Source: an uncultured Candidatus Saccharibacteria bacterium
GTDB lineage: Bacteria; Patescibacteriota; Minisyncoccia; UBA6257; 1-14-0-10-44-23
Length of the DNA stretch: 64,000 bases
Direction: 5' to 3'
NCBI GenBank assembly: GCA_964549935.1
Contig: CAZJVT010000003.1
Coordinates: 159,501-223,500 of the forward strand
The notes under the pieces are model-generated. The model saw nothing but the letters and a program-made list of their open reading frames with translations, had not been told where the DNA came from and searched no databases. Below are positions 25,101-42,134 of this stretch, one piece after another (position 1 is the stretch's first letter; every line of letters begins with the position of its first letter). The position numbers and the translations under genes were made by a program.

Positions 25101-25115
25101 AAGGAGAGGCGCAGC

Positions 25116-25965: not shown

Positions 25966-26038
25966 CATTGGGTACGCATCCCGCTTTCATTCTAGGAGCG
26001 GGAAGGTCCGTCGTCAGGGAAGGCAGGATCCTCAGGAC

Positions 26039-27433
26039 ATGAACAAGACCCAGCACGTCCTCCTCGGCGTAGCTCTCGCCGGCATCCTTCTCGGAAGCGG
26101 CTGCACCTCCCTCGGCCTGCCGCGGGAGGCGACGAAGCCCGCGCCGGTGACCTCGGTGAGCGACGCCACCCCGCCTGGGCCCGACAAGACGATCGGAATG
26201 GACCAGACGGCCCTCGTCGACCTCCAGCTCCCGCCTGCCTCCCTCGTTCCCAGGCCCGTCGAGCCCTCGGACAGGGTGCCGGACATCGACGTCCGGAACT
26301 TCAGCGCCTCCGAGGCGAGCTTGATCGAGGCTCTCCAGCTGCTCCTCGGCCGGACCGGCATCCCCGTGACGGTCGAGACCGGTCTCGACACCACGCGCAT
26401 CTCCGCGTTCGGGCTGTCGGGGAAGCTCTCGGACGTTCTCGACCGGCTTTCCGAAGGGGCAGGCGTCTTCTGGCGCTACCGCAACGGCTCTCTTGTCGTC
26501 TCCGGCGATCGGCCCTTCACCGTCGAGATCCCGCCGGTGATGGGCGACGTGGCCGCCGAGGAGATCGTCCGCGGAATCGAAAGCATGGGCGCGCTCCGCG
26601 TTCGCCTCGACCGGACCGCGAGCCTCATCAGCTATCGCGCCGAGCGTCGTGTCCACGACGTCGTCGTCGACTATCTCGAGAAAATCCGGAAATCCAAGTC
26701 GTTGATCGTGTTCCAGGCTTGGCTCCTGGAGGTCACCCTCAACGACCAGCGCCAGCTCGGCATCAACTGGAACGAGCTCGGCTGGAAGTCGGGCGGCGTG
26801 GCCCTCAGCCTGGCCGGGGGCAGCTCCGTCGTCGGCGGCACCACCTTCGGGGCCGTCTATGGCGGCAACCGCTTCTCCATCGACGGCCTGGTCAGCTTCC
26901 TGCAGACGCAGGGCACTCTTTCGACAGTGTCGAAGCCGTCACTCACCATGATCTCGGGCGGCAAGGCCAAGTTCGAGGTCGGCTCGATCGCCCGCTACGT
27001 CAGCAAGGCCGGTTCCAGCACGACGGGATCGACGGTCACCGGAACGACGGAGACCGAGTCCCTCAAGGTCGGCCTGCAGATGGCCATGACCGGCGACTAC
27101 AGCCAGGGCACGGTCTTCTTCAAGGTGGGCCTCGAGATCTCGGACATCACCCGCTTCGATCAGTACGAAGCCTTCGGGCAGCAGCTGAAGCTCCCCCAGA
27201 CGACCAATCGCCTCCTCGAGACGACGGACCGGGCCCGCCCGGGCGACGTGATCCTCCTCGGCGGCATCGTCAGCACACGCGACCAGGTCGACCGGGACGG
27301 CGTCCCGAGCGGCCTTGGGTTCCTTTTTCCCAGGCTCTTCAACGACCAGACCCAGCGTACCGAGCTGGTCGTCGTCTTGATGCCGAAGGTCATCCGTTTC
27401 GTGGACGCCGCGTCCCAGGAGGCCGCACGATGA
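26039..27433 (+). CDS. Lipoprotein secretin of the type IV pilus/T2SS family (BfpB/PilN(R64)/TcpC-like)
   Basis: Lipobox LLGSGC. Secretin C-domain blocks: LIVFQAWLLEVTLND, PSLTMISGGKAKFEVG, VILLGGIVSTRDQVDRDGVPSGLGFLFP. Confidence 0.9.
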   Translation: MNKTQHVLLGVALAGILLGSGCTSLGLPREATKPAPVTSVSDATPPGPDKTIGMDQTALVDLQLPPASLVPRPVEPSDRVPDIDVRNFSASEASLIEALQLLLGRTGIPVTVETGLDTTRISAFGLSGKLSDVLDRLSEGAGVFWRYRNGSLVVSGDRPFTVEIPPVMGDVAAEEIVRGIESMGALRVRLDRTASLISYRAERRVHDVVVDYLEKIRKSKSLIVFQAWLLEVTLNDQRQLGINWNELGWKSGGVALSLAGGSSVVGGTTFGAVYGGNRFSIDGLVSFLQTQGTLSTVSKPSLTMISGGKAKFEVGSIARYVSKAGSSTTGSTVTGTTETESLKVGLQMAMTGDYSQGTVFFKVGLEISDITRFDQYEAFGQQLKLPQTTNRLLETTDRARPGDVILLGGIVSTRDQVDRDGVPSGLGFLFPRLFNDQTQRTELVVVLMPKVIRFVDAASQEAAR

Positions 27434-28068
27434 GGGTCCGTCATTTCTTCCTTGCCGTCGGCGGGCTCGCTGCCATGACCGGTGTCGCGGTGGCCCAGGC
27501 CCCATCGATCCCGATGGCATCGCCACAGGCCGTGACCTCGTTGCCCCAGTCCGGGCCGCAGCCCGGGCCGCTCTCCCTGACGGTGCCGGCGAGCTCTCCG
27601 GGCTCCCTCAACCCCCTGCAGCCTCGTCCCACTCCGCAGGCCATGACGGCCGCGCCGGCCGCGGGCGCCCAGCCCCCGGCAATCGGTGGCCAGGCGCCGC
27701 CTTTCGGACAGACGCTGCCTGCGCCGCCGGCGCTCAACACGCCGGCCCAGGAGGTGAGCTCGAGCGACCTGTCGACGGTCACGATCACCGCGATCATGGA
27801 CGGCGCGGCGGTCCTACGCACCGCCAACAACTCCTACCAGGTCGCGGACAAGGGCATGCTCAGCCACAACGGGCGGCTTTACGGCGTTCGCGTGAAGGAC
27901 GGCGTGGTCACCCTGTTCGACCGCAACCAGCGGCCGGTCTTCGAGGCGACGGTCGGTTCCGGCGTATCGCCCGAACAGCGGTTCTCGTGGACGCGTGCCC
28001 AGTCGTCGTCGGGCAGCGCAACCGGAGCCCCGCCGGCCCCCGCGCCGGCCCCGCTCAAGACGCCCTGA
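27430..28068 (+). CDS. Secreted pilus-assembly accessory protein (Pro/Ala-rich; pilotin or PilP-like?)
   Basis: Signal peptide MRVRHFFLAVGGLAAMTGVAVAQA; ATGA overlap with secretin stop. Confidence 0.6.
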   Translation: MRVRHFFLAVGGLAAMTGVAVAQAPSIPMASPQAVTSLPQSGPQPGPLSLTVPASSPGSLNPLQPRPTPQAMTAAPAAGAQPPAIGGQAPPFGQTLPAPPALNTPAQEVSSSDLSTVTITAIMDGAAVLRTANNSYQVADKGMLSHNGRLYGVRVKDGVVTLFDRNQRPVFEATVGSGVSPEQRFSWTRAQSSSGSATGAPPAPAPAPLKTP

Positions 28069-28070
28069 CC

Positions 28071-29960
28071 ATGCCGGACGACATCCAGCCGACCGAAGGC
28101 CACCAGGCAACCTCCGAACGGCTTGCGCCCGGCCAGCTCGTGGTCTCCGTGACCATGGGGGACGGGACACGGGTCCAGCGGACCGTCATCGGCGGCGAGG
28201 ACCGGACAGTCCATGCCAGGCCGGCGGAACCGGCCAAGGTCAAGCCATCGCAGCTCGCCGTGGCGACGAAGCAGCAGCGGGTCCTTCATGCCGCCGGCGT
28301 CGACAAGGCGATCACCGAGATCCTGATCTCGATGGGCTTCCTGCCGCCGTCCCAGGCGGAGGCCGGATCGGGCCTGTCGAGGCGGAAGCAGGATCCGGGC
28401 GACCTGGTGAGCCTCCGGCTCCAGCAGAACCTTGGCATGAAGATCATGGGCGTCGAACGCGACGTCATATCGGTCGCCCTGACGAAGGCGGCGGACGACT
28501 TCAAGCGGCAGTTGCTCCTCCTCGAAGCCAGGCGTGCCGGCATCGAGGCGAGCCGGATCGAGATCCTTCCGATCGACCGCATGTCGGCGATCGCGCTGCT
28601 CGGCCAGACCCGCGTCGTGCATCGGGACGTGATCGAGAAGCGGATCCAGCGCCTCACCCGCGATCCGGGAGAGGGCTCCCTGCTGCAGCTCATCATCCAG
28701 GAGATCTTCTCCTACGCGGTGCAGATCGATGCCTCGGACATTTCGGTCAAGGTCGAGCCGAGGCATCTGGAGCAGTCGAACGTCGCCTTTCGCGTCGACG
28801 GCACGATGCAGTACGAGTTCTTCCTTCACCCCGACGTCGCCAAGCCGCTCGCGACCAGGCTGAAGGCGATGGCGAACATCGACTTTTCCGACCGCTCGCG
28901 CCCTCACGACAACCGCATCACCCTGCAGGTGGCCGGCCGCGACATCGACGTCCGCGTCGGCGTCGTCCCCACCGATCCAGGGGAGCTCATCACGATGCGC
29001 CTCCTGGACCCCAGGAAGGTTCTCCATATCGGTGATCTGTTCGGATCGATGCCGGCAACCGTCGCCTATATCCGGAGCTTCAATTCCCAGCCGACGAAGT
29101 CGGGCGGCGTCCTGCTGCTTTCGGGCCCCACGGGCTCAGGCAAGACGACGACCCAGAACGCCATCCTCCTCGACGTCGATCGCACCAAGAAAAAGGTCGT
29201 CACGATCGAGAATCCGGTCGAGTACACGATCCCGATGGCGCATCAGATCCAGGTTCAGACCGACGACCAGTGGGCCGAGGCGATGCGCGCCGTTCTTCGC
29301 CACGATCCCGACGTGATCGCGCTCGGCGAGATGCGCGATCGCCGGACGGCCGAGGCATGCAACTCCATGGCCGAGTCCGGGCACAAGGTCACCGTTACCG
29401 TTCATGCCGACGACGGCCCGCAGACGATCAACCGCTTCGCGGACTTCTTCGACGAGAGCAATCGCAAGCATCAGCTGAGCACTCTCGGCTCGCACATCTT
29501 CGGCGTCGTGAACCAGCGGCTTCTCTCGGCGGTGTGCCCTCATTGCTCGAGCAGCGTCGAGGTAGGCGACGAGGGAGCGCACACCACCCGCGAGATCCAG
29601 ATCGCGACGGAGATCCTCAGGATCCCGTCCCGGATGCAGGTGCGCCGGCCGAACCTCGAGGGCTGCGGCCACTGCAACCATACCGGCTACTTCCGGCGGG
29701 TGCTCTCCGTCGAGCAGATCTTCATCCCGCGCGATCATGGCGTCCGGCGCCAGGTGGTCGAGCGCCTGACCGGCGACCTCGTCCATGAGATCGTGGACAT
29801 CGAAGGGGTCTATTTCAGGAGCCACTCGGACCGGATCGTGGAGCTCCTGCAGCAGGGCTACCTCGACCTTTCGATCGCCGCCGGCGTGGTGGAGGCCACG
29901 GGATACGGCTACCGCCGACGAGGGGAGGCGGCCATCGACGTCCGCCAGATTCTCGTATGA
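28071..29960 (+). CDS. GspE/PilB-family pilus assembly ATPase (BfpD/PilQ(R64)/TcpT-like)
   Basis: Walker A GPTGSGKTT. Tetracysteine CPHC ... CGHC zinc motif. Start ATG 28071 just after stop of upstream gene. Confidence 0.9.
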   Translation: MPDDIQPTEGHQATSERLAPGQLVVSVTMGDGTRVQRTVIGGEDRTVHARPAEPAKVKPSQLAVATKQQRVLHAAGVDKAITEILISMGFLPPSQAEAGSGLSRRKQDPGDLVSLRLQQNLGMKIMGVERDVISVALTKAADDFKRQLLLLEARRAGIEASRIEILPIDRMSAIALLGQTRVVHRDVIEKRIQRLTRDPGEGSLLQLIIQEIFSYAVQIDASDISVKVEPRHLEQSNVAFRVDGTMQYEFFLHPDVAKPLATRLKAMANIDFSDRSRPHDNRITLQVAGRDIDVRVGVVPTDPGELITMRLLDPRKVLHIGDLFGSMPATVAYIRSFNSQPTKSGGVLLLSGPTGSGKTTTQNAILLDVDRTKKKVVTIENPVEYTIPMAHQIQVQTDDQWAEAMRAVLRHDPDVIALGEMRDRRTAEACNSMAESGHKVTVTVHADDGPQTINRFADFFDESNRKHQLSTLGSHIFGVVNQRLLSAVCPHCSSSVEVGDEGAHTTREIQIATEILRIPSRMQVRRPNLEGCGHCNHTGYFRRVLSVEQIFIPRDHGVRRQVVERLTGDLVHEIVDIEGVYFRSHSDRIVELLQQGYLDLSIAAGVVEATGYGYRRRGEAAIDVRQILV

Positions 29961-31186
29961 GCAGGTTCTGGCGAACCTCCTTCATGACTGCCGACCGGCC
30001 GGGCATGCCTGCTCGGCGCCTGGAGAAGGAGTTCTTTCTCCCCGACCAGGGTTCGGTACGCCTCGCGGTCGAGCAGATCGGCGGCCGGGTGATCTCCATC
30101 CGGGAGCGGCGCCTTCGGTGGTGGGACGGCGAGATCTTCACCAAGAGCTATCGGCTTCGGTTCCTCCGGACCCTCGGCTTCTTCGTCACCTCGAATTCGC
30201 CCGGCGTCGCCCTGGTGCGAGTCATCGAGACCGAGGAGGACATGCGAAAGCGCGCTCACCTGAACTCGGCCATCGAAGTGATCAACCGAGGCGGGGACTT
30301 CACCCAGGCGGTCCGCTCCATCAAGCTGTTCGACCGCTCGGTGATCGCAATCCTCGAGGCCGGGGAAAGGGTAGGGCGCCTCAGGGAAGCCATCGCCGCC
30401 GCCACCAGCCATGTCGAGAAGCGCGGCAAGAGCCTGAAGATGGTCATGTCTGCGATGGCCTGGTTCTGGATCGACGTCATCTCGACTGTTGCGACCGTGT
30501 TCGAGGTTCATTTCCACGCTCTTCCCTGGATCCGGGAAAACGCCTTCGACGGCGTCAGCGCCGCGAAGAAGGCCGAGATCATGGCTGCCCTCGACCGCGC
30601 GCAGGCGATCAACCTCGGTTTCATGGGGGTGGTCGCGGCCGTCGGCGTCCTGGCGCTTGCGGTCCTGTGGTCGACCTTCCTCGGTCGCGGGCGCGACGAC
30701 AGCGGAAAGCGCAACGTGATGAGCCTGATCCCAGGTCTCAGCACGATGGTCGTTTCCGCCGGCATCGCCGAGACCTTCTCGATCGTCTCACGGATGGTGG
30801 CTGGCTCCGCGCCCTTCTCGGAAGCGGTACGTGCCGCGGAACAGGCGACGATCGTCGGCAGCGTCTCCGGGTTCTGGAAGCGCGTCGGCGAGATGATCGG
30901 GAACGGCTGGGGCATCGACAAGGCGATGGCCAGGCATCCGCTGAGCCATGCCGAACGGATGGAGATCTCCGGCCACCGCAACCTGAGCCAGCTCGTCGAC
31001 GTGATGTCCTCCATCGCCGAGACCCGGGAGCAGACGGCCGAGCGTTACCTCAAGATGATCTCGAGCCTGTCCATCCTGGGGGTCCTGCTGTTCGGAGCCG
31101 GGGTCACCCTCAACGTCCTCTACGTCGTGTGGGTCCAGAACGAAGGCTTCACCAGCTCGATGCAGTCGATCATGGGCGGCGGCTGA
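29957..31186 (+). CDS. GspF/PilC-family inner-membrane platform protein (BfpE/PilR(R64)/TcpE-like)
   Basis: ~409 aa polytopic. Duplicated T2SS-F-like halves. ATGA overlap with ATPase. Confidence 0.85.
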   Translation: MSRFWRTSFMTADRPGMPARRLEKEFFLPDQGSVRLAVEQIGGRVISIRERRLRWWDGEIFTKSYRLRFLRTLGFFVTSNSPGVALVRVIETEEDMRKRAHLNSAIEVINRGGDFTQAVRSIKLFDRSVIAILEAGERVGRLREAIAAATSHVEKRGKSLKMVMSAMAWFWIDVISTVATVFEVHFHALPWIRENAFDGVSAAKKAEIMAALDRAQAINLGFMGVVAAVGVLALAVLWSTFLGRGRDDSGKRNVMSLIPGLSTMVVSAGIAETFSIVSRMVAGSAPFSEAVRAAEQATIVGSVSGFWKRVGEMIGNGWGIDKAMARHPLSHAERMEISGHRNLSQLVDVMSSIAETREQTAERYLKMISSLSILGVLLFGAGVTLNVLYVVWVQNEGFTSSMQSIMGGG

Positions 31187-31277
31187 AGCGGGGTAATCCC
31201 GATTTCCTCGGCATATGGGCCTGCCGGCGCCGAATGTTTCTTTGTATAAGCAGGTGCAAACAGTATAATAGACCGCC

Positions 31278-32132
31278 ATGGCCAGACCGCCCGACAGCTT
31301 CACCCCGGATTCGATCGTCATCGGACACGTACCCCTGGGTGCGGGCTCGGAAGCCCGGGATGCCGCCTACTGGGAGGCGCAGAGGGCCCTGGACGAGGAA
31401 GCGCTCCATCTCCTGCTGGTCGAAGGCCAGGACGAGGTCCGTTTCATGGCGGCGCCCAGTAGGGATTTCGTCGGCGCGCCCTTCGGGGCCACCTCGATCC
31501 TGGCCGCGGCCTTTCCCGGTCATCCAGGGCATGTCGGCGACGGCGCCTATCTCGCGGACGCGCCGACCGGCGTCGCCTGTATCGTCTGCAAGCATGGCGA
31601 GCTTCTTCTTTTCGTGGGCGATCGGAATGCCGTGGAGGCGTTCGCCAGGCATAACGAAGCCGACATCGTAGAGCCGTCGAGCGGTGCCGGACCGGCCTGG
31701 GAAGGCTTCCGCATCGGGTCGCTCCGACGTCATGGCCGGATGGCGATGACCGCGCTTCTTGCCGCCGCCGCCGTCAGTATCGTCATGGCCGTGGTCTGGG
31801 TGGCATCGGCGCTGACCCTTTCCGGATCGGCCGAGGTCGAGGCGCAGATCAGGTCCACCGCGGATGCGGGCATGCGCGCCGCCGCCCAGGAGCTGACCAA
31901 GGCCGTACGCCAGCCCCTGGCCGACGACCTTTCATACTTCCAGCAGATCGCCGCGATCACCGCCGGGACGGGTGGCTGGATCAAGGAATTCAAGATCACG
32001 AACGGCCAGGCCACCTGGTCGGCCGAGTTCCCTATGTGGGTGACCGCCGATCAGCTCCAGGCTCTCGGCCGCAACCTGAAGACCCGGGCCGACGACGCCA
32101 AGGGTGTCGTGATCGTCGAGGGATCGCGCTGA
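31278..32132 (+). CDS. Bitopic inner-membrane pilus biogenesis protein (BfpC/PilM-like candidate)
   Basis: Central TM ALLAAAAVSIVMAVVWVASAL; operon context. Confidence 0.6.
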   Translation: MARPPDSFTPDSIVIGHVPLGAGSEARDAAYWEAQRALDEEALHLLLVEGQDEVRFMAAPSRDFVGAPFGATSILAAAFPGHPGHVGDGAYLADAPTGVACIVCKHGELLLFVGDRNAVEAFARHNEADIVEPSSGAGPAWEGFRIGSLRRHGRMAMTALLAAAAVSIVMAVVWVASALTLSGSAEVEAQIRSTADAGMRAAAQELTKAVRQPLADDLSYFQQIAAITAGTGGWIKEFKITNGQATWSAEFPMWVTADQLQALGRNLKTRADDAKGVVIVEGSR

Positions 32133-32254
32133 TGTCCATGAACCCGAGGACAGTTATCAATGCCGGCAGGGTCGCGGCCGCGATCAGTGTCGCGATGGCG
32201 ACGGTGTGGCTGATCTACCTACTGAAATTGCTGGTCAAGAGCGCCCCGCTATGA
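32132..32254 (+). CDS. 40-aa single-TM peptide (pilus operon small subunit)
   Basis: ATGA overlaps at both ends (32130-32134 and 32251-32254). Confidence 0.4.
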   Translation: MSMNPRTVINAGRVAAAISVAMATVWLIYLLKLLVKSAPL

Positions 32255-32742
32255 ATCCTCTCGTCCGCATCCGGTCCGCTCTCGTCCGCTTCCTGGACGG
32301 TCTCGACGAAACCCGCGGGACGGCCCTTGTCTCCCTCGCTTGGGTCGTCGCCCTGGTCTTTACCGTGGGCGCCGGCTGGCAGGTCCTCGAAGTACGCCGG
32401 ACCTCCGAGCAGATGAAGGTCCTCCAGGTCGGCGCTACCGTGAAGCTGGCTGTGGGCGAGGCTCCGGTCACGGCCGAGGAGATGGGCCGGGTCGCGGCGC
32501 AGGTGAAGCTCATGCATCCCTCGCTGAACGTCGCTTCGGACCCTGAGGGGATCCGCATCACGGCACAGGGGGAAGAGCGCTTCTTCGATTTCCGCTACGC
32601 GATCGCCACCGCGATGAACGCCCTTCCGGACGCCCGATGGAAAGCCCAGACGCTCATGCTCTGCGGCGGAGCGGGATGCCAGGGCTCCAACTACCTCGGC
32701 GTCCTCAAGGCGACCCGCGTGAAGGTGAACGTCACGGGGTAG
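32251..32742 (+). CDS. Bitopic membrane pilus-assembly protein (PilN/PilO/BfpL-like candidate)
   Basis: N-terminal TM ALVSLAWVVALVFTVGAGW; C-terminal Cys pair. Confidence 0.55.
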   Translation: MNPLVRIRSALVRFLDGLDETRGTALVSLAWVVALVFTVGAGWQVLEVRRTSEQMKVLQVGATVKLAVGEAPVTAEEMGRVAAQVKLMHPSLNVASDPEGIRITAQGEERFFDFRYAIATAMNALPDARWKAQTLMLCGGAGCQGSNYLGVLKATRVKVNVTG

Positions 32743-32784
32743 ACGGCACCTCCGACGGCAGTGGCGGGCCCTGCATCGCCGCGC

Positions 32785-32811
32785 TTGAACAGAGGCCGAC
32801 AGGCTTATACT
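32785..32811 (+). promoter_or_regulatory. Possible internal promoter (TTGAAC ... TATACT) ahead of the major pilin gene
   Basis: Read directly; spacer about 15 nt (suboptimal). Confidence 0.3.
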
Positions 32812-32835
32812 ATGGTCAACCAGGAGAATGAACCC

Positions 32836-33570
32836 ATGCGTGCCCAGATGACGAACCTCCTTTCCGGTCTCGGCGTTGCCGGTTTGCCGATCAGGTCCGT
32901 GTCGGCCCGGACTTCCGCGAATGCCGGCTTCGGCACCTCCGCGGTCCTCCTCGTCGTCGTTCTCATCGCAGCGATCGGCGCCTTCTTCGCCTACTCGACC
33001 CGCGGCAGCAACGTGACCTCCGCCCAGTCGACGAATTCCATCGGGGCGACCACGATCATCGACCAGGGCACCCAGATGCGCTCCGGCTTCGAGCGCATGC
33101 TGGCGAACGGCTCGGCCGCGAGCCAGGTGACCTTCGACACGGCGGCGACTACCGGCCTGTTCAATCCGACGACCGGTGGCACGGGCGACCAGCCGCCGCC
33201 GCAGCGGAACCTGACGGACGAGGCGATCGCGGGCTCGGCCCCCTTCGCGGCGGCCGTCACGACCTACAGCTACAAGACGGGCGTGACCGGTCCCGCGAAC
33301 GTCGGCACCGCTGCCGGCCTCAAGTACGGCGTGTTCCTCCCGGGCGTGAAGCTGGCCGTCTGCCAGGCGATCAACAACCAGCTCTACTCGGATTCGCTGA
33401 GCGCGACGCCGGTGGCGAGCGGTCTTGCCGTCACGGCCTTCGTCGGCGGCGCGGCTGTCGACCTGACCGCCGGCGCCATGGCCGCCGGCCTCAGCCAGCG
33501 CTCCGAGGGCTGCATCGGCACCACCAGCGCCAACCAGTACGTCTACTACAAGGTCATGTACGTGCAGTAA
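32836..33570 (+). CDS. Type IVb major prepilin (long leader, about 30 aa, ending ...SANAG|FGTSAVLLVVVLIAAIGAFFAY; C-terminal Cys pair)
   Basis: SD AGGAGA 9 nt upstream of ATG 32836. Hydrophobic alpha1-N after G|F. C...C disulfide region LAVCQ ... EGCIG. Confidence 0.7.
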   Translation: MRAQMTNLLSGLGVAGLPIRSVSARTSANAGFGTSAVLLVVVLIAAIGAFFAYSTRGSNVTSAQSTNSIGATTIIDQGTQMRSGFERMLANGSAASQVTFDTAATTGLFNPTTGGTGDQPPPQRNLTDEAIAGSAPFAAAVTTYSYKTGVTGPANVGTAAGLKYGVFLPGVKLAVCQAINNQLYSDSLSATPVASGLAVTAFVGGAAVDLTAGAMAAGLSQRSEGCIGTTSANQYVYYKVMYVQ

Positions 33571-33572
33571 CG

Positions 33573-34076
33573 ATGGGCTGGATCAGCGCACTCATCGCCG
33601 CGATCGTCCTGAGCGGCGTCGTCGCCGCCTCCCAGGCGCGGAGCGGATCGACGGCCGCGAAGGTCCAGCGCATCGACACGGCTGTCGCCTCGCTCAATGC
33701 GCAGGCGAACATGACCCGTCAGGTGCTGACGCAATGCGCGCTCGACTATCCGTCGGGCGACAACGGCACCGGCTTCACCATCGCCTACCCGGCAGCGACG
33801 GCCGCAACGGCGCTCACCGGGCTGCAGTGCCCGGGGGCGCCTGCCGGCTTCAAGGACTTCTGGGGTGGCCGCAACGGCGTTTTCGAACCCGTGGCGCCAT
33901 CGGGCTTCGGCGCCTGGACCTACCTGAACAATGCCACCGGCGTCAGCCTGACGATCACGGCGGCGAGCGCCGATGCGGCTCTCGTCGCCGCCATGGACCG
34001 GGTGGCAGCGGCTTATTCGGCCACCGAGGCCACCCGCAGCGGGCTTTCACTCACCGTCTGGATCATCCGGCTATGA
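33573..34076 (+). CDS. Minor pilin-like protein
   Basis: N-terminal hydrophobic helix MGWISALIAAIVLSGVVAAS; Cys pair. Confidence 0.55.
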   Translation: MGWISALIAAIVLSGVVAASQARSGSTAAKVQRIDTAVASLNAQANMTRQVLTQCALDYPSGDNGTGFTIAYPAATAATALTGLQCPGAPAGFKDFWGGRNGVFEPVAPSGFGAWTYLNNATGVSLTITAASADAALVAAMDRVAAAYSATEATRSGLSLTVWIIRL

Positions 34077-34732
34077 GCAACGCGCGCAATCGCCAGGGCG
34101 GTTTCGCCCAGACCATCGCCATCGTCGCGATCGGCCTCGCGGCCGCCATCGGTCTTTCGGCTTCCTTCGCCTTCCGTCAGGCCAACGCCACCTCGCGCGG
34201 CCTCCAGAAGGAGCAGGTGAGGGGAGACCTCAGCCAGCTCGCCAAGCAGCTGGCGCTGATGTCGACGCCGGATTCTTCCGGGATCCTGACCGCCCCGGCC
34301 TTCGTCACGCCGACCTCGGGGACGCCGCCGACGAACGGCGGCAAGCTCCCGTCTTCCATCGCGACACGCACGACGACGCCCCAGGGAACCCCGTTCGGCT
34401 ACTGCCCGGTCAAGCTCGGCGATACCGCGGGCGCGGGGAACCGGATCGCCACCGGCGGAACGCCGGGTAGCTCGACGATCCTGTTCGCCCTGATCTCTCC
34501 CGGCGCCGACAGGGTCTTCCAGACCACATGCCCCGATGCGATCGCCGGCACCAGCTTAGGCGACGACGCGATCTTTCGAGCCCGCCACAGCGACGTGCAG
34601 CGCGTGGTCTACGAGGCGGCTGCCGACCGGCTGGGCCATAGCAGCTTCCAGGCCGCGGAGATGCGTTGCGCCGTCGACGGCAAGCTTTTCCAGCCATTCG
34701 CCACGGGCAAGGACGCCCGCGGCTGCAAATAG
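34073..34732 (+). CDS. Minor pilin-like protein (class III signal-like QGG|FAQTIAIVAIGLAAAIG)
   Basis: ATGA overlap with upstream pilin. G|FA motif shared with 32836 and 35271 genes. Confidence 0.6.
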   Translation: MSNARNRQGGFAQTIAIVAIGLAAAIGLSASFAFRQANATSRGLQKEQVRGDLSQLAKQLALMSTPDSSGILTAPAFVTPTSGTPPTNGGKLPSSIATRTTTPQGTPFGYCPVKLGDTAGAGNRIATGGTPGSSTILFALISPGADRVFQTTCPDAIAGTSLGDDAIFRARHSDVQRVVYEAAADRLGHSSFQAAEMRCAVDGKLFQPFATGKDARGCK

Positions 34733-34741
34733 GACCAGCAG

Positions 34742-35212
34742 ATGACCAATCGCATTCCCGTGAAGATCTCGCTCTCGCCCGAATACGACCGCTCCTGGGG
34801 CCCGCCGGGCTACGCCAAGCCCGGCGACGCTGGGTTCGATCTCCGCGCCCTCATCAAGGCGCCGATCGAGATCCGCGCCGAAGAGCAGCACCTGATCCCG
34901 ACCGGCCTCCGCATCGCCGTGCCGCCGGGGTTCGAGCTGCAGGTCCGGCCGCGGTCGGGCCTGGCGCTCAAGCACGGCCTGACGATCGTCAACTCGCCGG
35001 GCACGGTCGATTCCGGCTATCGCGGCGAGGTCGTCATCATCGCCTATCGCCTCAAGGGGCTCGGCGACGACAGCAAGCTCGTCGTCAAGCCAGGCGACCG
35101 CATCGCCCAGGGCGTCATCGCGCCGGTCTACCAGGCCGACTTCGATGTTGTCGACGAGCTCGACGAGACCGAGCGCGGGAGCAGCGGCTTCGGCTCCAGC
35201 GGCAGCAACTGA
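34742..35212 (+). CDS. dut: dUTP diphosphatase (trimeric dUTPase) embedded in the pilus operon
   Basis: All five dUTPase motifs present: GDAGFDL, RPRSGLALKHG, GTVDSGYRGEV, GDRIAQG, RGSSGFGSSG. 10-nt gap to upstream pilin gene, 59 nt to downstream pilin gene. Confidence 0.9.
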   Translation: MTNRIPVKISLSPEYDRSWGPPGYAKPGDAGFDLRALIKAPIEIRAEEQHLIPTGLRIAVPPGFELQVRPRSGLALKHGLTIVNSPGTVDSGYRGEVVIIAYRLKGLGDDSKLVVKPGDRIAQGVIAPVYQADFDVVDELDETERGSSGFGSSGSN

Positions 35213-35270
35213 TCCTTCGACCGGAAGCGCGGCCGGCATGGGTGCCGCGATCATGCAGAAGAGGTGTGCG

Positions 35271-37541
35271 ATGTTCAGCTTCATCAAGACCGGCTTCGGG
35301 ACCCGAGAAAGCCAGCGGGGTTTCGCCGCCGCGACCGTCCTGAGCGGGATCCTCCTCGCCGGCCTCGCCGCCGGCGTCATGTATTCGGGCTGGTCGTCGA
35401 CTCAGCGCACCACCGCCTCCCTGACCAAGTCGTCCAACAACGACTCGCTGATGTCGCAGGTCCGGGCGGCGATCATCTCGGAGCACGCCGATCTCGACGG
35501 CGACGGCACGCCGGAAGGTCCGGCGCCGCTGACCGGGGTCACGCCCATCCCGACTGGCGGCGGGCAGATCCCGGCGAGCTCGAAGGCGCCGAAGACCGAT
35601 GGCTGGGGCACCGCCTTCGGCTATTGCGCCTTCAAGAACGGCTCCGGCGCCGATCGCGCCGGATACATCCGGAACACGGCGACCTCGACCGGCGGCGAGA
35701 TCAGCTTCGCGATCATCTCCGCCGGCTCCGACAAGACGATCCAGACCACCTGCGCGCAGGCACTGACCCAGTCGGCGCAGGGCGACGACAAGCTCGCCAC
35801 ATACTCGCTCGCCGACGTGACGCTGTCTGGCGTCACCTTCAGCGGGGCCGGCTCGGGCACCAACTCCACCGACGTCCAGAACAAGCAGGTCGCCTGCGTC
35901 GCGAGCGGGAAGCTCTACGCAGGCGTCGGCGCGACCGGAGCGGATGCGAACGGCTGCATCGCGCCGGCCGGTTCCGGCGGCGGCATCGTCACCGACGCGC
36001 AGGGCCGCCTGGCGGTCTCCTGCACGCATATCTCGCAGCTCGTGACCAATCCGAGCGACGGCGAGTACATGCTCCTCGGCGTTCCGACCGACGGGTCGCT
36101 GCCGGCGATGTATCCGACGGAATGCGACTTCACCACCTGGGGTGGGAAGTGGACGATGGTCGCGAAGTACGACCCGACAGCGGCCTGCCCGGCCACGATG
36201 AAGGCTGGCGGCGTCTGCTCGGCGCCGTCGGACGGCATCGACCTGATGAACATGAGCCGGATCTCGAACGACATGACGTCGGTCCGGGCTCTCACGAACG
36301 CGCTTCGCTACCTGAAGCCGTTCAGCGAGATCATGATGAAGGACGCGAACGGGTCCTTCATCGTCTGGAACTGCGGCGGGAACCAGAGCCGGTCATGGTA
36401 CGAGCGCTACCTCGTCTATGGCGGAGCCGAGACCTGCTCGATCAGCAGCTCGACCTTCCATAATGGCGGGACCAAGTCGCTCAACACGCTGACGCCGAGG
36501 TTCCAGGTCAACCTGACCGGATTCCGGGAGCTGACTTCGACGCCGTTTTCCTGGTGGTCCTGTCCCGCCTACTCGAATTGCGACGGCGACTGGACCATCC
36601 GGACGACGGTGCAGCGCGACTATCCGGGATATTCGGGCAACTACTATTTCAATGCCGGCTATGTCTACATGCCGGCGCGCGGGACCAACGGCGTGGCCGA
36701 CTGGTACCTCAAGGTCTGCGATCTCTCGACGCTTGAGACGCGTGACGTCGTCTCGCCGATCGGCGGCACCTACGCGAATGGGTGCCAGGCGAGCTGGATC
36801 AGCACCTTCCGGGGACCGTGGAGCTTCACGTCCGGCCCGCGTCACGACTGGAGCTACGCCGTCGACTATCCCGGCGACGAAAACAACATCCTTCCCAGCC
36901 TGGCGCATCTCGCCACGCAGCCGCGGCCGAACCAGAACTGGGCACCGGACTATCAGCTCACGATTGTCTCGCCCGCGGCCATCAACGGCACCGGCTGGCA
37001 TCAGCGACTGAACTTTTCGGCACCGAATCCGTCCGACAGCAACAACGTCTGCAATTTCGGCTATGGCCAGTACGACGCCTACTGGGGCAACGGCGCCGCT
37101 GCCGCGGGAGTCTTCTTCCGACCTACCAGCTATCTCGTCTACGGCAACGGCACGCTCTCGAGCGTCCAGATGGGCTACGCCGGTCCGTGGCAGGATGCCT
37201 ATGCCTACTGGGAGTTCACCGGCGGCACCGGACAGAACTTCGCCATCCCCGGCTATGTCGACCTCAAGTATTCGATGATCAACGGCTCGGGCAACGGGCG
37301 GTCGATCTGTGCCGGTACCCGCAAGCTCTACTGGGGGTACCTGCATCAGGATGGCTACTGCGTCTTCCAGCAATACAAGGACTTCCATGCTTCCGGATAC
37401 TGGATGTGGCAGGACGGATGCCAGGCCCAGCAGGCTTTCAACAAGACCGAGACCGCGTTCAACGCGCTGCCGGGAAGCGTGCCCCTGGGGTTCGTGAAGT
37501 CCTTCATGCCGACGGACATCCGGAAGATCTATATCCGGTGA
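35271..37541 (+). CDS. Large pilin-like protein (756 aa): N-terminal prepilin-type segment RG|FAAATVLSGILLAGLAAGVMY, Cys-rich middle, Trp/Tyr-rich C-terminal domain. Putative tip adhesin / initiator minor pilin (PilV/TcpB/CofB analogue).
   Basis: SD AAGAGG 7 nt before ATG 35271. Multiple Cys pairs. Aromatic-rich C-terminus suggests carbohydrate binding. Confidence 0.65.
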   Translation: MFSFIKTGFGTRESQRGFAAATVLSGILLAGLAAGVMYSGWSSTQRTTASLTKSSNNDSLMSQVRAAIISEHADLDGDGTPEGPAPLTGVTPIPTGGGQIPASSKAPKTDGWGTAFGYCAFKNGSGADRAGYIRNTATSTGGEISFAIISAGSDKTIQTTCAQALTQSAQGDDKLATYSLADVTLSGVTFSGAGSGTNSTDVQNKQVACVASGKLYAGVGATGADANGCIAPAGSGGGIVTDAQGRLAVSCTHISQLVTNPSDGEYMLLGVPTDGSLPAMYPTECDFTTWGGKWTMVAKYDPTAACPATMKAGGVCSAPSDGIDLMNMSRISNDMTSVRALTNALRYLKPFSEIMMKDANGSFIVWNCGGNQSRSWYERYLVYGGAETCSISSSTFHNGGTKSLNTLTPRFQVNLTGFRELTSTPFSWWSCPAYSNCDGDWTIRTTVQRDYPGYSGNYYFNAGYVYMPARGTNGVADWYLKVCDLSTLETRDVVSPIGGTYANGCQASWISTFRGPWSFTSGPRHDWSYAVDYPGDENNILPSLAHLATQPRPNQNWAPDYQLTIVSPAAINGTGWHQRLNFSAPNPSDSNNVCNFGYGQYDAYWGNGAAAAGVFFRPTSYLVYGNGTLSSVQMGYAGPWQDAYAYWEFTGGTGQNFAIPGYVDLKYSMINGSGNGRSICAGTRKLYWGYLHQDGYCVFQQYKDFHASGYWMWQDGCQAQQAFNKTETAFNALPGSVPLGFVKSFMPTDIRKIYIR

Positions 37542-37677
37542 CAGACCGGCCGGCCGGTTCCACCGCTCTTGAACCGGCCGGCTGACGTCGAAAAGGCTTG
37601 ACACCGTCGTTTCTTCCTTGCCCCGTGTAAAACTGTCCGCTATATGCTTTAGGCGACAGAATCATACGGAGCAGACG

Positions 37678-38451
37678 ATGACCACGCATCCCAGCACCCC
37701 GGAGGCTCAAGCCCAGGTGGCTCGGACCTGCGTCGTTCGCTTCTTCCAGACTTTGAAGCCCGAAAACGGACCGCTGAACGAGCTGCCGCCGGTCCTGGCT
37801 AAGCTTCGGACCGCCGCGTTGGCCGCTGGGCTCCTGGGCGCTCTCGGCGCCCATCCGGGTCCCGCGCATGCCGGCGATCCCGCCTCGCAGCTCCGGCTGA
37901 GGGTTGTCGCCGCTGCCGCGATGCAGGGTCTCGTCGCCGACCGGTCCGGACTTCTGCTCGATCTCGAGCTCGCCGAGGCGGCCGGGCGAGCTCAGGCGGC
38001 GCTCCTGGACAAGGGCCCGGGCTCCAGCTCCGGCTGGGCGTCCCGAGACCGCGCGATCGAGGCCAAGACCGGCTACGTGGCGTCGGCGCGGATGCCTGTC
38101 GTGACCTGGCGGAAGGAGTTTCGCGAGTCAGCCGTGCCGGACGCGCGACCGGGCGAGGAATGCGCGGTTCTGGTCACTGCATTCACCGGCTTCCCTGGCG
38201 GCAAGCCCGCCGACATCGCGACGCTGTTCTGCCGGGGGCGCGAAGGCTGGCGCCTGGTGGACATGGGCGACTGGGCGAGGGTCTACGAGTCCCTCCGGGA
38301 TGCGGGGGCCGAGATGCGGAATGCCGCTGCTTCGCCGGCGCCGGTCCATACCGGCGAAAGCGGGGAGCCCTGCCTGGAGACCTCCGAGGAGATCCAGGTC
38401 GGCGGCCGCACGGAGACCGCGTTCGGCATCGCCTGCCGCATGCCGTCGTAA
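37678..38451 (+). CDS. Secreted hypothetical protein, paralog of 39652..40360
   Basis: N-terminal VVRFFQTLKP motif then hydrophobic AALAAGLLGALGA; C-terminal block GEECAVLVTAFTGFPGG ... GWRLVDMG. Confidence 0.6.
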   Translation: MTTHPSTPEAQAQVARTCVVRFFQTLKPENGPLNELPPVLAKLRTAALAAGLLGALGAHPGPAHAGDPASQLRLRVVAAAAMQGLVADRSGLLLDLELAEAAGRAQAALLDKGPGSSSGWASRDRAIEAKTGYVASARMPVVTWRKEFRESAVPDARPGEECAVLVTAFTGFPGGKPADIATLFCRGREGWRLVDMGDWARVYESLRDAGAEMRNAAASPAPVHTGESGEPCLETSEEIQVGGRTETAFGIACRMPS

Positions 38452-38477
38452 CAGCGAAGTTCCTGGAAAATGCCTGA

Positions 38478-38508
38478 GGGCGGCGGATCGATCCGCCGCC
38501 CTTCTTCA
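38478..38508 (+). terminator. Rho-independent terminator: perfect 24-bp palindrome GGGCGGCGGATCGATCCGCCGCCC followed by TTCTTC
   Basis: Read directly, 27 nt after stop of 37678..38451. Confidence 0.6.
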
Positions 38509-38602
38509 TGCCGGCGCGCAGCCCCATGCAAGGGGCTTTGGCGCTTTCTTGGAACGCATGATAAACTGTATTCGCACTTATATTCACCAGGAGCCGTTCG
38601 TC

Positions 38603-38935
38603 ATGACCCTGCACAACGCCAACGCCCTGCCGATGAAAGGCACCTATCGCTCGGTGCCCCTGGCTCTCGGCTGCGCGCTCGCGATCAGCGCCGAGGCCGG
38701 CGCGGCCGTCCTGGGCTACGAGGACGAGCGGTTCAAGGATACGACCCGGGTCCTGCTCTATACCGCGAGCAACAAGATGGTGGCGCAGCTGAAATCGGGC
38801 CGCGCGATCGATCTGGGCGAGGTCGATGTCCAGACCGCGGAGGACATCAAGGGCCTTCGCACCCTCGTCATCTCCCGTCCAGGCGAGAACGCCGGCGAGC
38901 TCGACAGCCAGTTCGTCAGCATCCGACGCATCTAG
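38603..38935 (+). CDS. Small secreted protein (110 aa)
   Basis: SD AGGAG 8 nt before ATG; signal peptide LALGCALAISAEAGAA. Confidence 0.55.
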   Translation: MTLHNANALPMKGTYRSVPLALGCALAISAEAGAAVLGYEDERFKDTTRVLLYTASNKMVAQLKSGRAIDLGEVDVQTAEDIKGLRTLVISRPGENAGELDSQFVSIRRI

Positions 38936-38966
38936 GCCGTTTCCCCAGGTCCAAAGGAGACCTCCG

Positions 38967-39641
38967 ATGAGCACCGCCAACGCCTTCGTCGCCAGCTTCT
39001 TCGCCGGACTCCGTGCCGAGCCCCTCAAGGCTGCCGACAGGGAGTCCGAGAGCCGCACGCCGATCCTCGATCGCCTGCGCGGCGTGGTCGCCGTGGCCAT
39101 CGTCGCCGCGGTCCTGGCACCGACCGGTGCCCAGGCCCAGTCCCTCGGCATCAATACCCCGACGATCATGGGCATCCTCGGCGCCGCCGGCGGCGCATGG
39201 GGCGGCAGCCAGATCGGCCGCGGCGCCGGCAAGACCGCGGCGATCGCCGTCGGCACGCTGCTCGGTAGCGGCCTCGGATGGGAGGCTGGGAAGTACCTGG
39301 ACTCCCAGGGCGAGGCGGCGAAGGTCGCCCTTTCCCAGGCTCAGCTCGGTCAGCGCGTCGCCTGGCAGGACCAGGGCGCGTCCGGCTACTTCATGCCGAT
39401 CCGCGAAGGCGTCTCGATGCAGACCGGGCTGCAGTGCCGCGAGTACCAGACCGAGATCGTCGTGGGCGGGCAGCGCCAGGCCGGCTACGGAACCGCCTGC
39501 CTGCAGCCGGACGGCCACTGGCAGATCGTTTCCTCGGGCCAGGCTCGCCAGGGCGCCCAGTACAATCCGGCGCCGGCCTACGGACAGCCGATGCCTACCT
39601 ATGCCGGCCAGACCGGAATGAGCTACGGCTCGCGCTACTAG
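38967..39641 (+). CDS. Glycine-zipper membrane/surface protein (17-kDa-antigen / SlyB-like Gly-zipper) with Gln/Tyr-rich C-terminus
   Basis: GILGAAGGAWGGSQIGRGAGKTAAIAVGTLLGSGLGW; SD AAAGGAGA; N-terminal FVASFFAGLR motif. Confidence 0.6.
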   Translation: MSTANAFVASFFAGLRAEPLKAADRESESRTPILDRLRGVVAVAIVAAVLAPTGAQAQSLGINTPTIMGILGAAGGAWGGSQIGRGAGKTAAIAVGTLLGSGLGWEAGKYLDSQGEAAKVALSQAQLGQRVAWQDQGASGYFMPIREGVSMQTGLQCREYQTEIVVGGQRQAGYGTACLQPDGHWQIVSSGQARQGAQYNPAPAYGQPMPTYAGQTGMSYGSRY

Positions 39642-39651
39642 GTCCTCGAGA

Positions 39652-40360
39652 GATGACCGAAGCGGTACGCGATCGAACCTCCGCGAGCGACCGGGGAGCC
39701 GCAAGCGCCCTGGTCGCTTCCTTCTTCCGGCACCTGCGACCTGTTGACGATGCTCTCCCGCGGGTCCTGCGCCGGCTCCGCATCGCCGCTCTCGCGATCG
39801 GCCTGCTGTCGACCACGGCCTTCTCGACGTCATCCGTGGCGGATGCCGGGCCCGGCGACGGGCTCAGGCTCGCGACCGCGGCCGCCCTCCAGGCCGTCAC
39901 CGGCGAGCGGGACGGCATGACCTTCGACCTCGATGCCCTCGACGCAGCAAGCCGGGCGCATATGGCTCTCCTCGAAACGGTGTCGAGCGGCCGGACCGGT
40001 GCCGCAAGGGCCTGGACAGGCGACGACGGCCGGACCAGCGGCAAGACGCTGCTCGCGTCCGTGTCTCGTATCGGACAGGGCAAGAGCTTCGAGGACGGGA
40101 AGGACAGAAGCGGCGCGGAATGCGCGGCCTTGATATCGGCGGCCAGCTTCAGCGGCCGTGGCCCCATGGTCTCGGCGACACTCGTCTTTTGCAGGGCGTC
40201 GGGCGAAAGATGGGAGCTCGTGGATGCGGGCTCCAATGTCTCGACTCTTCAGGAGCTGCACAAGAAGCTCGCCGATGCTCTCGCGCGCCCGGACCTGCCG
40301 CGTGCGAGTGCCGAGGCGACCAGCCAGTCCGGCATGTCCGGCATCGGCAGCAGTCTCTGA
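39652..40360 (+). CDS. Secreted hypothetical protein, paralog of 37678..38451
   Basis: LVASFFRHLRP motif then LRIAALAIGLLS; C-terminal GAECAALISAASFSGRG ... RWELVDAG. Confidence 0.6.
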
Positions 40361-40402
40361 AATCGAAGTCGTAGCTTTCGGTCAGCCGCTTCGCCGCAAG
40401 CG

Positions 40403-42127
40403 TCAGCCGGCGAGGCCACCGGCCAACTCGGCATCGACGACGGGCGCCGACCCGGTGCTCTCGATCATGGCGAGCGTTCTCCTGCCGGCCGGATCCATCG
40501 CTGCCAGCAGATCCTCGGCCAGGTTCCTTGCCGTCGAATTCCGGAGATGATCGACCAGCGTCCTGCCCGCCGCGACGACGGCGCGATCGATGTCAGAAAT
40601 CGACAGCCGGTCCGCGTGCGGGACCCGAAGCATGGCAATCCTGGCGGCCGCCTCGAGATCCTCGGAATGGCGCCAGGACCGCTCGACGTCCAGAAGCTCC
40701 CTCGGCGACAGCGCGTGCCAGCTCCGGCCCTTCGCCGTGAGCCTCATGCTCTCGTCGACGAGACGGAGCTCGGCGAAGCGTTCCGCGTGGTCGACCCAGG
40801 TGCTCGGCGAACCCAGCCTCATCGGCGGGCCCTGGAGCCGTTCGAGGCAGGGGCCTCTGGTCAGGGCGACGAAGACCGACTCCTGGATATCGTAGCCACG
40901 GAACCCAGGAGCGATCGCGAGCTGGCTCTGAACCTGCGATCTCGTTCCAGCGGGCGTGACCTGGCGCTTCAGCGGGATCTCTCCCGATGAGCCGAGGGCC
41001 GCTGGCCAGGGAACCCGAATGACGGCGACCTCCTGGACATGAGCCGCGATCGCGTCATAGGCGAGGCGATAGACGATCGAATGGCATTTGCGGCGGAGAT
41101 CGGCGCCGATTTCAGGAATGAAAGGTGCCGGGGCGATCGGATGGAGGGCCTCATGGACCTGGAGGCGATCCATGGGAAGGAATGCGCCTCCCCGAAGCTG
41201 CATCATGTCGCAAAGCCGGTCGAAGGTGTCTTCCGCGAGCTGGCTCGACATCGTCCTTGGATAGGAGATGAGGCCGTCCTGATACAGCTCCTGAAGGGAA
41301 GCCATGATCGACGGATGCGGTGCGAACGTCTCTCGCTTGATCGCGTCGATCGCCGAATCCAGCGCCGGCATGGGCGAGGGGTTTGGAGATCTCTCTCCTT
41401 CCAACGGAGGCATTGCGCTGCCGTCGGCGATCGCCAGCAGCCTGGTCGCCCTGTCGCGGCCGGCAACGGGAATGGTGGCGGAAAAGTCAGGACCTCCGGA
41501 GGCAGATCTCCTCCGTATCGTCACCTCGCCTATCGGGAGCCTTTCGTCATGGGCGGCACCAAGCAAGGCGGTAAGGACCCGGCCGACGGCAATGCCGCGT
41601 CCCGTGCTCCTGTGACGGCTGGAATAGGTCGCCCCGAGGAGGCGGTCGTGCGCGCTCCTGGCAAACCCAGGTATGGCTGCGCCAGGATTGAAGATCTCGG
41701 CGACCTCTAGGGCTCGCCTGATGGACCGCGTATCGATCGAGGAGGGCCGGACCCGGTAGATCGGGCCCCGGAACCCCGATTGAAGCAAGGACCTGGCGGC
41801 GTCCGCGGCGATGACCTCTCCCTCGTCGTCAGCGTCCGTCATCAGCAGGACGGCATGACGATTGACCGCGGCCGATACGATCGCATCGAGCCGATCCTGC
41901 TTGCGCGGCGACCTCGCATGCTCGATGCCCTCGGCGTCGATGCCGACGAGCGACAGGTCGCGGGGACTCGCCATGAGATGGCCCATGGTCGCGACGATCC
42001 ACGGCAGCGTTCCGCCCCAGAGTTCGTTCGCGATTGTCCGGAAGGCGTTTCTCATGGCCTGGAGCTGCCCGAACGACTCGATGACCACGAGCGGAGAGAC
42101 CGGTCCCCGCAGATCGTGAAGCCTCAC
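40403..42127 (-). CDS. Topoisomerase IA-like Toprim-domain protein (short, divergent)
   Basis: LVVIESFGQ ... ATMGH ... LMTDADDEGE (Toprim DxD) and active-site-like GLISYPRT (compare GxITYxRTD). Confidence 0.65.
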   Translation of the reverse strand: MRLHDLRGPVSPLVVIESFGQLQAMRNAFRTIANELWGGTLPWIVATMGHLMASPRDLSLVGIDAEGIEHARSPRKQDRLDAIVSAAVNRHAVLLMTDADDEGEVIAADAARSLLQSGFRGPIYRVRPSSIDTRSIRRALEVAEIFNPGAAIPGFARSAHDRLLGATYSSRHRSTGRGIAVGRVLTALLGAAHDERLPIGEVTIRRRSASGGPDFSATIPVAGRDRATRLLAIADGSAMPPLEGERSPNPSPMPALDSAIDAIKRETFAPHPSIMASLQELYQDGLISYPRTMSSQLAEDTFDRLCDMMQLRGGAFLPMDRLQVHEALHPIAPAPFIPEIGADLRRKCHSIVYRLAYDAIAAHVQEVAVIRVPWPAALGSSGEIPLKRQVTPAGTRSQVQSQLAIAPGFRGYDIQESVFVALTRGPCLERLQGPPMRLGSPSTWVDHAERFAELRLVDESMRLTAKGRSWHALSPRELLDVERSWRHSEDLEAAARIAMLRVPHADRLSISDIDRAVVAAGRTLVDHLRNSTARNLAEDLLAAMDPAGRRTLAMIESTGSAPVVDAELAGGLAG

Positions 42128-42134
42128 GCGCCCC

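Follow-up and report, generated by a model that had tools for sequence, protein, structure and literature searches.

A dUTPase gene embedded in the type IV pilus operon of a mobile element with type IVB transfer genes

Introduction

Why should a type IV pilus operon contain a gene for a dUTPase? The question is raised by a 64,000-nucleotide stretch of contig CAZJVT010000003.1 (NCBI assembly GCA_964549935.1, an uncultured Candidatus Saccharibacteria bacterium), which we call the window. On its plus strand the gene dut (34742-35212) lies between the genes for two pilin-like proteins, g219 and g756. An earlier interpretation made from the letters of the window, the sequence-only reading, had noticed this arrangement. 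It had proposed that the encoded enzyme (Dut) either moonlights in the regulation or assembly of the pilus, or protects transferred DNA from uracil.

We searched the literature and found no paper on dut in a type IV pilus operon or in the transfer operon of an integrative and conjugative element (ICE), and none that links dUTPases, ICEs and type IV pili. The placement of the gene therefore appears to be undescribed, as had been claimed for type IV pilus loci. Dut itself is common on mobile DNA: 348 plasmid records and 1892 phage records contain a match. Hence, what is new about this gene is its context. Our answer to the question is a modest one. The dut gene in the pilus operon is most likely a curiosity, a DNA-hygiene passenger that points to no new mechanism.

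The dut gene and its product

The open reading frame (ORF) of dut encodes 156 amino acids, and its coordinates were exact when we checked them. All family models agree on what the product is. It matches the Pfam dUTPase family PF00692 (E 5.4e-24, 84.8 bits, cutoff 22) and passes two NCBIfam cutoffs, that of the dut equivalog NF001862 (169.4 bits vs 103) and that of TIGR00576 (147.8 bits vs 102.55). The PHROG dUTPase family is matched as well (E 1.2e-51). Among the sequences of the PDB there are 59 dUTPase matches, the best of which is 8y1q (6.5e-39). With the E. coli Dut structures (152 aa) the pairing is nearly full length: residues 2-154 of the query pair with residues 2-150 of the chain.

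We aligned the window Dut with three database relatives and with E. coli Dut. All five motifs of trimeric dUTPases are intact in this alignment (Table 1), and the same alignment contains no motif VI insertion in the window Dut, only an insertion of three residues. Judged by these family features, the ORF is a trimeric dUTPase. The enzyme is predicted to be an ordinary one, homotrimeric and catalytically competent. Thus, the family cutoffs and the alignment bear out the earlier statement that the gene encodes a dUTPase with five intact motifs.

The gene looks like its neighbors. Its GC content at third codon positions (GC3) is 0.92, like that of the genes around it, and dut is therefore not a fresh foreign insert. 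It is well ameliorated.

The place of dut in the pilus operon

The stop codon of g219 ends at 34732, which leaves 9 nt to the ATG of dut. From the dut stop it is 58 nt to the ATG of g756 at 35271, which is preceded by an AGAGG Shine-Dalgarno sequence. The public gene call prefers an alternative ATG for g756 at 35238, which shortens the second gap to 25 nt. The position between two pilin-like genes, as described before, is thus confirmed, with gaps counted here as 9 nt and 58 nt.

A consensus scan of 25000-41000 found a single promoter-like site on the plus strand, upstream of the secretin gene (25936-25965). It is likely to be the start of the pilus operon. The same scan found no promoter- or terminator-like site near dut, although promoters of a GC-rich organism that are not sigma-70-like could escape it. 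Neither of the gaps that flank dut folds more stably than its shuffled versions (z +0.6 and +1.3). The operon's sole strong hairpin (37547-37584) follows g756 and has a folding energy of -31.6 kcal/mol (z -4.3; 0/200 shuffles as stable). It likely marks the end of the pilus transcription unit.

In the simplest reading, the plus strand from 26039 to about 37541 would form a single operon in which g756 comes last and dut second to last. Co-transcription of dut with the pilus genes is plausible given the short gaps, the unfolded spacers and the lack of flanking signals in the scan. The sequence-only reading had called it almost certain.

Dut in the sister lineage

All comparative evidence below comes from look-ups of exact proteins. 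Several contigs from a single sample series encode a protein identical to the window Dut. A search of 5.8 billion proteins gave just one further Dut above 60% identity. This protein (P0002, 79% identity) is encoded in another lineage of the cluster, to which L004, L005, L007 and L008 belong. The two lineages are syntenic from the response regulator through the RecD2-like helicase, and all genes in this range are shared at 55-92% protein identity.

The order of the genes around dut is not the same in the two lineages. The window has g219-dut-g756 (dut and g756 at 34742-37541), whereas L004 has g221, g759, dut and g264 (the large gene and dut at 2727-5479). Hence, dut and the big gene have swapped places. 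In L004 there is a 4-nt overlap (ATGA) between dut and the stop of the big gene. There, a hairpin follows dut (z -2.3), and after it comes the same conserved promoter-like block that is found behind g756 in the window.

Between the lineages dut has a synonymous divergence (dS) of 0.56, and the dS of its neighbors ranges from 0.53 to 1.29. The ratio of nonsynonymous to synonymous divergence (dN/dS) is 0.36 for dut, 0.37 for g219, 0.45 for g756 and 0.08-0.20 for the pilus core. The five Dut motifs are identical in both lineages. These values indicate that dut has diverged together with the cluster, under selection that is purifying but relatively relaxed. It was probably recruited in the common ancestor of the two known lineages.

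Outside these two lineages the best Dut matches reach 46-59% identity and are taxonomically scattered. Phage and plasmid Duts in the collections searched are at most about 52% identical to the window Dut. Three matches were discarded. The best plasmid matches are in a phage-plasmid-like Rhizobium replicon and in a Sphingomonas record, which includes dnaA and coaBC-dut, core genes of a chromosome; both have an unrelated context. The Dut that ranks third in similarity (P0004, 55%) adjoins a gene that we read as thyX by a sequence motif, on an unrelated GC-rich contig.

A lineage-specific addition

If Dut were a part of the pilus, related pilus clusters should carry it. Such clusters are rare. 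The platform protein belongs to a small family: a search of 1.84 billion representative proteins gave 68 clusters at E<=1e-30. A megablast search of the PLSDB plasmids with the cluster gave no match. Profile scans of genome contigs (with the platform and Toprim alignments) and of metagenome contigs (with the platform alignment) gave no confirmed relative.

The distant relatives that the look-ups returned share 26-39% identity with the platform protein and 31-36% with the ATPase. All of them keep the secretin, ATPase and platform genes, and the secretin orthologs in all related clusters are 25-41% identical. Homologs of g284, g163, g244 or g167 are recognizable in most of them. In contrast to this core, dut, g219 and g756 are absent from the fetched sequence of every distant cluster: the chromosomal clusters L009-L013; L015 and L016; the cluster on the Methylibium petroleiphilum megaplasmid (L022); and the nearest outgroup (L023/L024, NCBI GCA_964647725.1, GC 49.5%). 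Hence, dut is an addition specific to the lineages that carry it and is no component of the pilus. The comparison of homologous clusters that had been suggested as a check therefore has a divided outcome: the sister lineage keeps dut, on the other side of the large gene, and all more distant clusters lack it.

A mobile element with a pilus and a type IVB transfer system

The pilus genes are part of a large mobile element, either an ICE or a plasmid, with type IVB (Dot/Icm, IncI-like) transfer genes. A TrbN-like gene near the right end of the window opens a transfer cluster that runs past the window end. We followed the cluster on L019, a public contig that overlaps and extends the window and has the transfer genes at 10510-20510. 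These encode DotM/IcmP (PF23127, 2e-39; NF033890, 6e-36), a TrbC/DotL-like coupling protein of 912 aa (NF041447, TrbC_conju, 1.7e-100) and a protein of the DotA/TraY family (210 bits, cutoff 100). The suspicion that the pilus is part of a DNA-transfer machine is thereby strengthened: a TrbN-like protein, DotM/IcmP, a TrbC/DotL-like protein and DotA/TraY are encoded at or just past the right end of the window.

The element is likely conjugative. We do not put it more strongly because neither a relaxase nor an origin of transfer (oriT) was seen in the window and the L019 sequence, and because type IVB systems can also deliver effectors (PMC9519443).

In L023/L024 the genes for VirB8 and VirB9/CagX precede the secretin gene; platform and pilin-like genes follow, and then come TrbI (VirB10), a VirB11-like protein and a type IV coupling protein. 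In L014, another close outgroup, VirB8 and CagX lie directly upstream of the secretin gene, and the contig ends before the distal genes. In these outgroups the pilus core is physically inside a VirB-type type IV secretion system (T4SS) cluster, an unusual hybrid of type IV pilus (T4P) and T4SS. These gene neighborhoods show a recurrent link between the pilus core and conjugative T4SS genes. We had also considered a competence or DNA-uptake pilus, on account of the DNA-processing genes nearby. We dropped this idea since the type IVB genes and the outgroups with a T4SS-embedded pilus favor a conjugation-associated pilus.

With type IVB transfer genes on the same element, the pilus resembles the thin pilus of the IncI plasmid R64, its nearest described analog. 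We know of no dut in the R64 pil operon. R64 (IncI1) combines a pil operon for the thin pilus with type IVB Tra/Trb genes (Kim and Komano 1997; Komano et al. 2000; cited as references 28 and 91 in PMC4027160). Both elements thus set a type IV pilus beside a Dot/Icm-like transfer system of the mating-pair formation type I (MPF_I) kind. The window has an R64-like gene set: a secretin with a lipoprotein-like signal, a PilB-like ATPase and a PilC-like platform protein (these three in one operon, 26039-31186), pilin-like proteins, a large variable adhesin-like pilin and a prepilin peptidase. The likeness is one of gene set, and the window proteins match only general family models of type II secretion systems (T2SS) and T4P. 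The window also differs from R64 in that there are no convincing shufflon-like repeats around the adhesin gene and the prepilin peptidase gene is 26 kb away.

Why does a pilus operon carry a dUTPase?

We propose that Dut is a catalytic dUTPase that serves as a DNA-hygiene accessory of the element and is expressed together with the pilus and transfer genes. We give this reading a probability of about 0.6. The gene would have been inserted at the distal, variable end of the operon, beside the lineage-specific genes g219 and g756, and would be transcribed with the pilus genes from the operon promoter. While the transfer genes are on, Dut would hydrolyze dUTP. Uracil would be kept out of element DNA made in excision-associated or rolling-circle replication, as has been proposed for the Duts of phages and plasmids. 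Dut would be no structural or assembly part of the pilus.

The trimeric dUTPases (PF00692) of phages, phage-inducible chromosomal islands (PICIs) and plasmids are the closest parallel. They belong to the same fold family, have the same five motifs, are borne on mobile elements and presumably lower dUTP during element DNA synthesis. The window dut differs from them in that it lies in an operon for a type IV pilus, on a conjugative-type element, and not in a phage replication or early module. A housekeeping dut such as that of E. coli is another parallel. The window Dut passes the cutoff of the dut equivalog and aligns nearly full length. Nevertheless, it is an isolated sequence lineage, and its gene is flanked by pilin-like genes on a mobile element and has no adjacent coaBC, whereas the Sphingomonas comparator has coaBC-dut.

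Several points weigh against the accessory role. Classical conjugation transfers a DNA strand that already exists. Hence, a dUTPase in the donor is of use only when replication of the element precedes or accompanies transfer. The host probably has a dut of its own. Every other relative of the pilus and T4SS works without dut, so any benefit is non-essential, and the looser dN/dS of dut (0.36, compared to 0.08-0.20 for the pilus core) means that the gene may be only weakly useful. Finally, both co-transcription and enzyme activity are deduced from sequence, and the promoter scan would miss promoters that are not sigma-70-like.

Another explanation is that dut is a neutral or nearly neutral hitchhiker. 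The gene would then have landed in a recombination-prone distal end beside a fast-evolving adhesin gene, where it is harmlessly read through from the operon promoter and provides no specific benefit. This would fit its occurrence in two close lineages and its absence from all other relatives. Its changed position between the lineages, which implies local rearrangement, and a relatively relaxed dN/dS near those of g219 and g756 would fit as well. On the other hand, both lineages have kept the catalytic motifs although dS has reached about 0.56, and dN/dS lies far under 1. Both arrangements also keep dut tightly coupled: 9 nt separate it from g219 in the window, and in the sister lineage it overlaps the gene before it by 4 nt. 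We regard the hitchhiker as unlikely, but as an explanation to be taken seriously.

A third explanation is a moonlighting role. Here Dut would be a regulator or anti-repressor, in the way that staphylococcal phage Duts act on the SaPI repressor Stl, or a partner of pilus proteins. Expression of the pilus or induction of the element would thereby depend on the state of dUTP or of replication. The gene does lie in the pilus operon and not among the DNA-metabolism genes of the element, and candidate repressors with a helix-turn-helix (HTH) or a LexA-like (S24) domain are encoded at 21480-24203. Moreover, later work states that Stl can bind trimeric Duts without phage-specific features (PMC5794464). 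In staphylococci, however, signaling trimeric Duts require motif VI for the derepression of pathogenicity islands (SaPIs) (PMC5593958, PMC4914113), and the window Dut, a minimal enzyme of 156 aa, differs from them in having no motif VI insertion. No other homologous pilus cluster has dut, and the pilus therefore does not need it. No partner was identified, and nothing ties Dut to pilus assembly. Moonlighting, which the sequence-only reading had raised as one option, is improbable for these reasons.

Two further roles concern the host and the recipient. The element could have captured the cell's only dut, or Dut could be delivered to the recipient, or expressed early in it, and shield the incoming DNA. 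IncI systems transfer proteins such as the Sog primase, which offers an analogy for the recipient-directed role. More generally, type IVB systems transfer proteins besides DNA (PMC9519443). The window Dut is at most 59% identical to database Duts outside the sister lineage and is thus no recent copy of a typical chromosomal gene. Against delivery, Dut has no recognizable translocation signal, there is no evidence of its transfer, and its gene is in the pilus operon instead of a leading region. Against capture, the coaBC-dut arrangement found in the one alphaproteobacterial example fetched is missing, and it would be unusual for a mobile element to hold a gene that its host cannot do without. 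We consider these roles the least probable of all.

The boldest version draws on the last two ideas and makes Dut a working part of the transfer program, more than a sanitizer of nucleotides. It could, for instance, sense dUTP and so tie the expression of pilus and adhesin to the replication state of the element, or it could be exported by the type IVB system and protect incoming element DNA from uracil excision in the recipient. We keep a slim chance for it, hardly any greater than that of capture or delivery, because dut is tightly coupled to the adhesin gene, by translation or within the operon, in both arrangements.

If the DNA-hygiene reading is true, some conjugative elements resemble phages in having a dUTPase of their own, which is expressed along with the mating apparatus. 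This would be a small addition to the DNA-hygiene functions borne by ICEs. It also raises the idea that uracil in the transferred DNA restricts how well this DNA becomes established in ung+ recipients. Of more use is a by-product of the analysis, the context of the gene: a rare and barely sampled type IV pilus lineage, repeatedly linked to T4SSs and here extended by a module of g219, dut and an adhesin-like gene.

The pilin-like proteins

The genes on either side of dut had been taken for pilin genes. The label is reasonable but putative, based on N-termini, a repeated DNA segment and operon context. The N-termini of g244, g167, g219 and g756 (Table 1) consist of a basic leader, a Gly, an F or W, and about 20 hydrophobic residues; Glu5 is absent from all four. 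The DNA for the hydrophobic segment is repeated in g167, g219 and g756 (repeat family D1). In addition, g219 (34073-34732) and residues 1-240 of g756 (35271-35990) are 33% identical and share two conserved Cys pairs. None of the four proteins matches a pilin model or a solved structure: the two that flank dut have no pilin match in Pfam, NCBIfam, PHROG or PDB, and a PDB sequence search with g756 and g244 gave no meaningful match. An AlphaFold2 model of g219 from a two-sequence alignment had a pLDDT of 31 and was uninformative.

The four proteins differ in how widely they are shared. Orthologs of g244, the candidate major pilin as judged from its N-terminus, occur at 24-31% identity in L010-L013 and L023/L024, and those of g167 at 23-34% in L009-L011, L022 and L023. 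In contrast, g219 is confined to the two close lineages, with a 66% identical ortholog in L004 and none in the distant clusters. The most divergent gene of the cluster is g756, with 55% identity to its L004 ortholog. It is a candidate tip adhesin. It has no Pfam or PDB match and one NCBIfam match below threshold, to the fibrinogen-like GGGWT_bact (20.1 bits, cutoff 30). We found no convincing shufflon-like inverted repeats around it. The protein looks like a g219-type pilin fused to a C-terminal region of about 520 aa.

Table 1. Coordinates of the features discussed, in window positions unless given as Dut residues.
Feature	Position	Strand	Basis or remark
Tyrosine integrase	8491-9609		mobile-element gene
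Two tandem hipA-like kinase genes	17644-21289	-	small HTH gene before each (18935-19273, 20942-21289)
LexA/CI-like S24 peptidase protein	21480-22118	-	upstream of pilus region
HTH_3 protein	23445-24203	+	upstream of pilus region
Sigma-70-like promoter candidate	25936-25965	+	TTGACG-18-GATAAT, 10/12 matches, upstream of secretin gene
Secretin, 464 aa	26039-27433	+	PF00263 E 1e-20; lipoprotein-like signal (…LLGSGC)
g212	27430-28068	+	gene call; no family assigned
PilB/GspE-type assembly ATPase, 629 aa	28071-29960	+	PF00437 E 1.9e-67; GspE and PilB models
PilC/GspF-type platform protein, 409 aa	29957-31186	+	PF00482 E 4.7e-11
g284	31278-32132	+	pilus core, no known family; kept in distant clusters
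g40	32132-32254	+	pilus core, no known family; gene call
g163	32251-32742	+	pilus core, no known family; kept in distant clusters
g244, pilin-like	32836-33570	+	N-terminal sequence; long leader, …SANAG then FGTSAVLLVVVLIAAIGAFFAY
g167, pilin-like	33573-34076	+	N-terminal sequence; MG then WISALIAAIVLSGVVAA…
g219, pilin-like	34073-34732	+	paralog of N-terminal ~230 aa of g756; …RQGG then FAQTIAIVAIGLAAAIGL…
dut	34742-35212	+	trimeric dUTPase family
Dut motif I	A30-L34		AGFDL
Dut motif II	R69-G73		RPRSG
Dut motif III	G87-G95		GTVDSGYRG, contains Asp90
Dut motif IV	R120-Q123		RIAQ
Dut motif V	R145-G154		RGxxGFGSSG (here RGSSGFGSSG), C-terminal arm
g756, pilin-like N-terminus	35271-37541	+	…SQRG then FAAATVLSGILLAGLAAG…; ~520-aa C-terminal region, fold unassigned
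14-bp GC-rich hairpin	37547-37584	+	directly 3' of g756 stop; no T-run
Conserved intergenic block, promoter-like	37615-37660	+	TTGCCC-17 nt-TATATG, upstream of g257; alignment with L004
Toprim/topoisomerase-like gene (divergent, 574 aa) and RecD2-like helicase gene (975 aa)	40403-45062	-	convergent with pilus genes
Prepilin peptidase A24, 248 aa	60814-61560	-	PF01478 E 1.5e-10; public gene call
TrbN-like lytic transglycosylase	63368-63877	+	NF010463 E 3.9e-24, 85.8 bits (below curated cutoff 246)

Other genes of the element

The window has a GC content of 66%. An Rfam scan of the whole window gave no match. It contains no tRNA genes and therefore no anchor for an attachment (att) site. The tandem pairs of hipA-like and HTH genes are likely toxin-antitoxin modules of the hipBA type carried by the element. 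The S24 and HTH_3 proteins are candidate repressors of the element, possibly responsive to the SOS system.

The prepilin peptidase gene lies outside the pilus operon and adjoins the start of the type IVB secretion system (T4BSS) cluster. Its neighbors on the minus strand (60814-62644) include a gene with an LPD7 polyvalent-protein domain, and a gene for a glycine-rich protein lies at 59412-60806.

The element also carries a DNA-processing toolkit (40403-50480), which comprises the Toprim-like and RecD2-like proteins, a thioredoxin-like protein, an ATP-dependent DNA ligase with a WGR domain and a RecJ-like nuclease. The genes for the Toprim-like and RecD2-like proteins are syntenic in the sister lineage (L005). 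An RNase T/DnaQ-like exonuclease at 58579-59415 is part of the same set. Beside it, at 57222-58550 on the minus strand, a long pentapeptide-repeat protein is encoded (Pentapeptide E 3e-63 in hmmscan), where the public annotation gives no Pfam family.

Downstream of the pilus operon lie four genes, g257, g110, g224 and g235 (37678-40360), that are confined to the two close lineages. The stretch in front of them (window 37547-37660, L004 5480-5628) holds a hairpin and, after it, the intergenic block that both lineages share. The block reads …CCTTGCC..GTGTAA..CTGT..GCTATATGCTTTAG…; it could be a promoter or operator for these four genes. The proteins g257 and g235 are paralogs with 31-37% identity across the lineages, and g224 weakly matches the 17-kDa antigen/glycine-zipper outer-membrane family.

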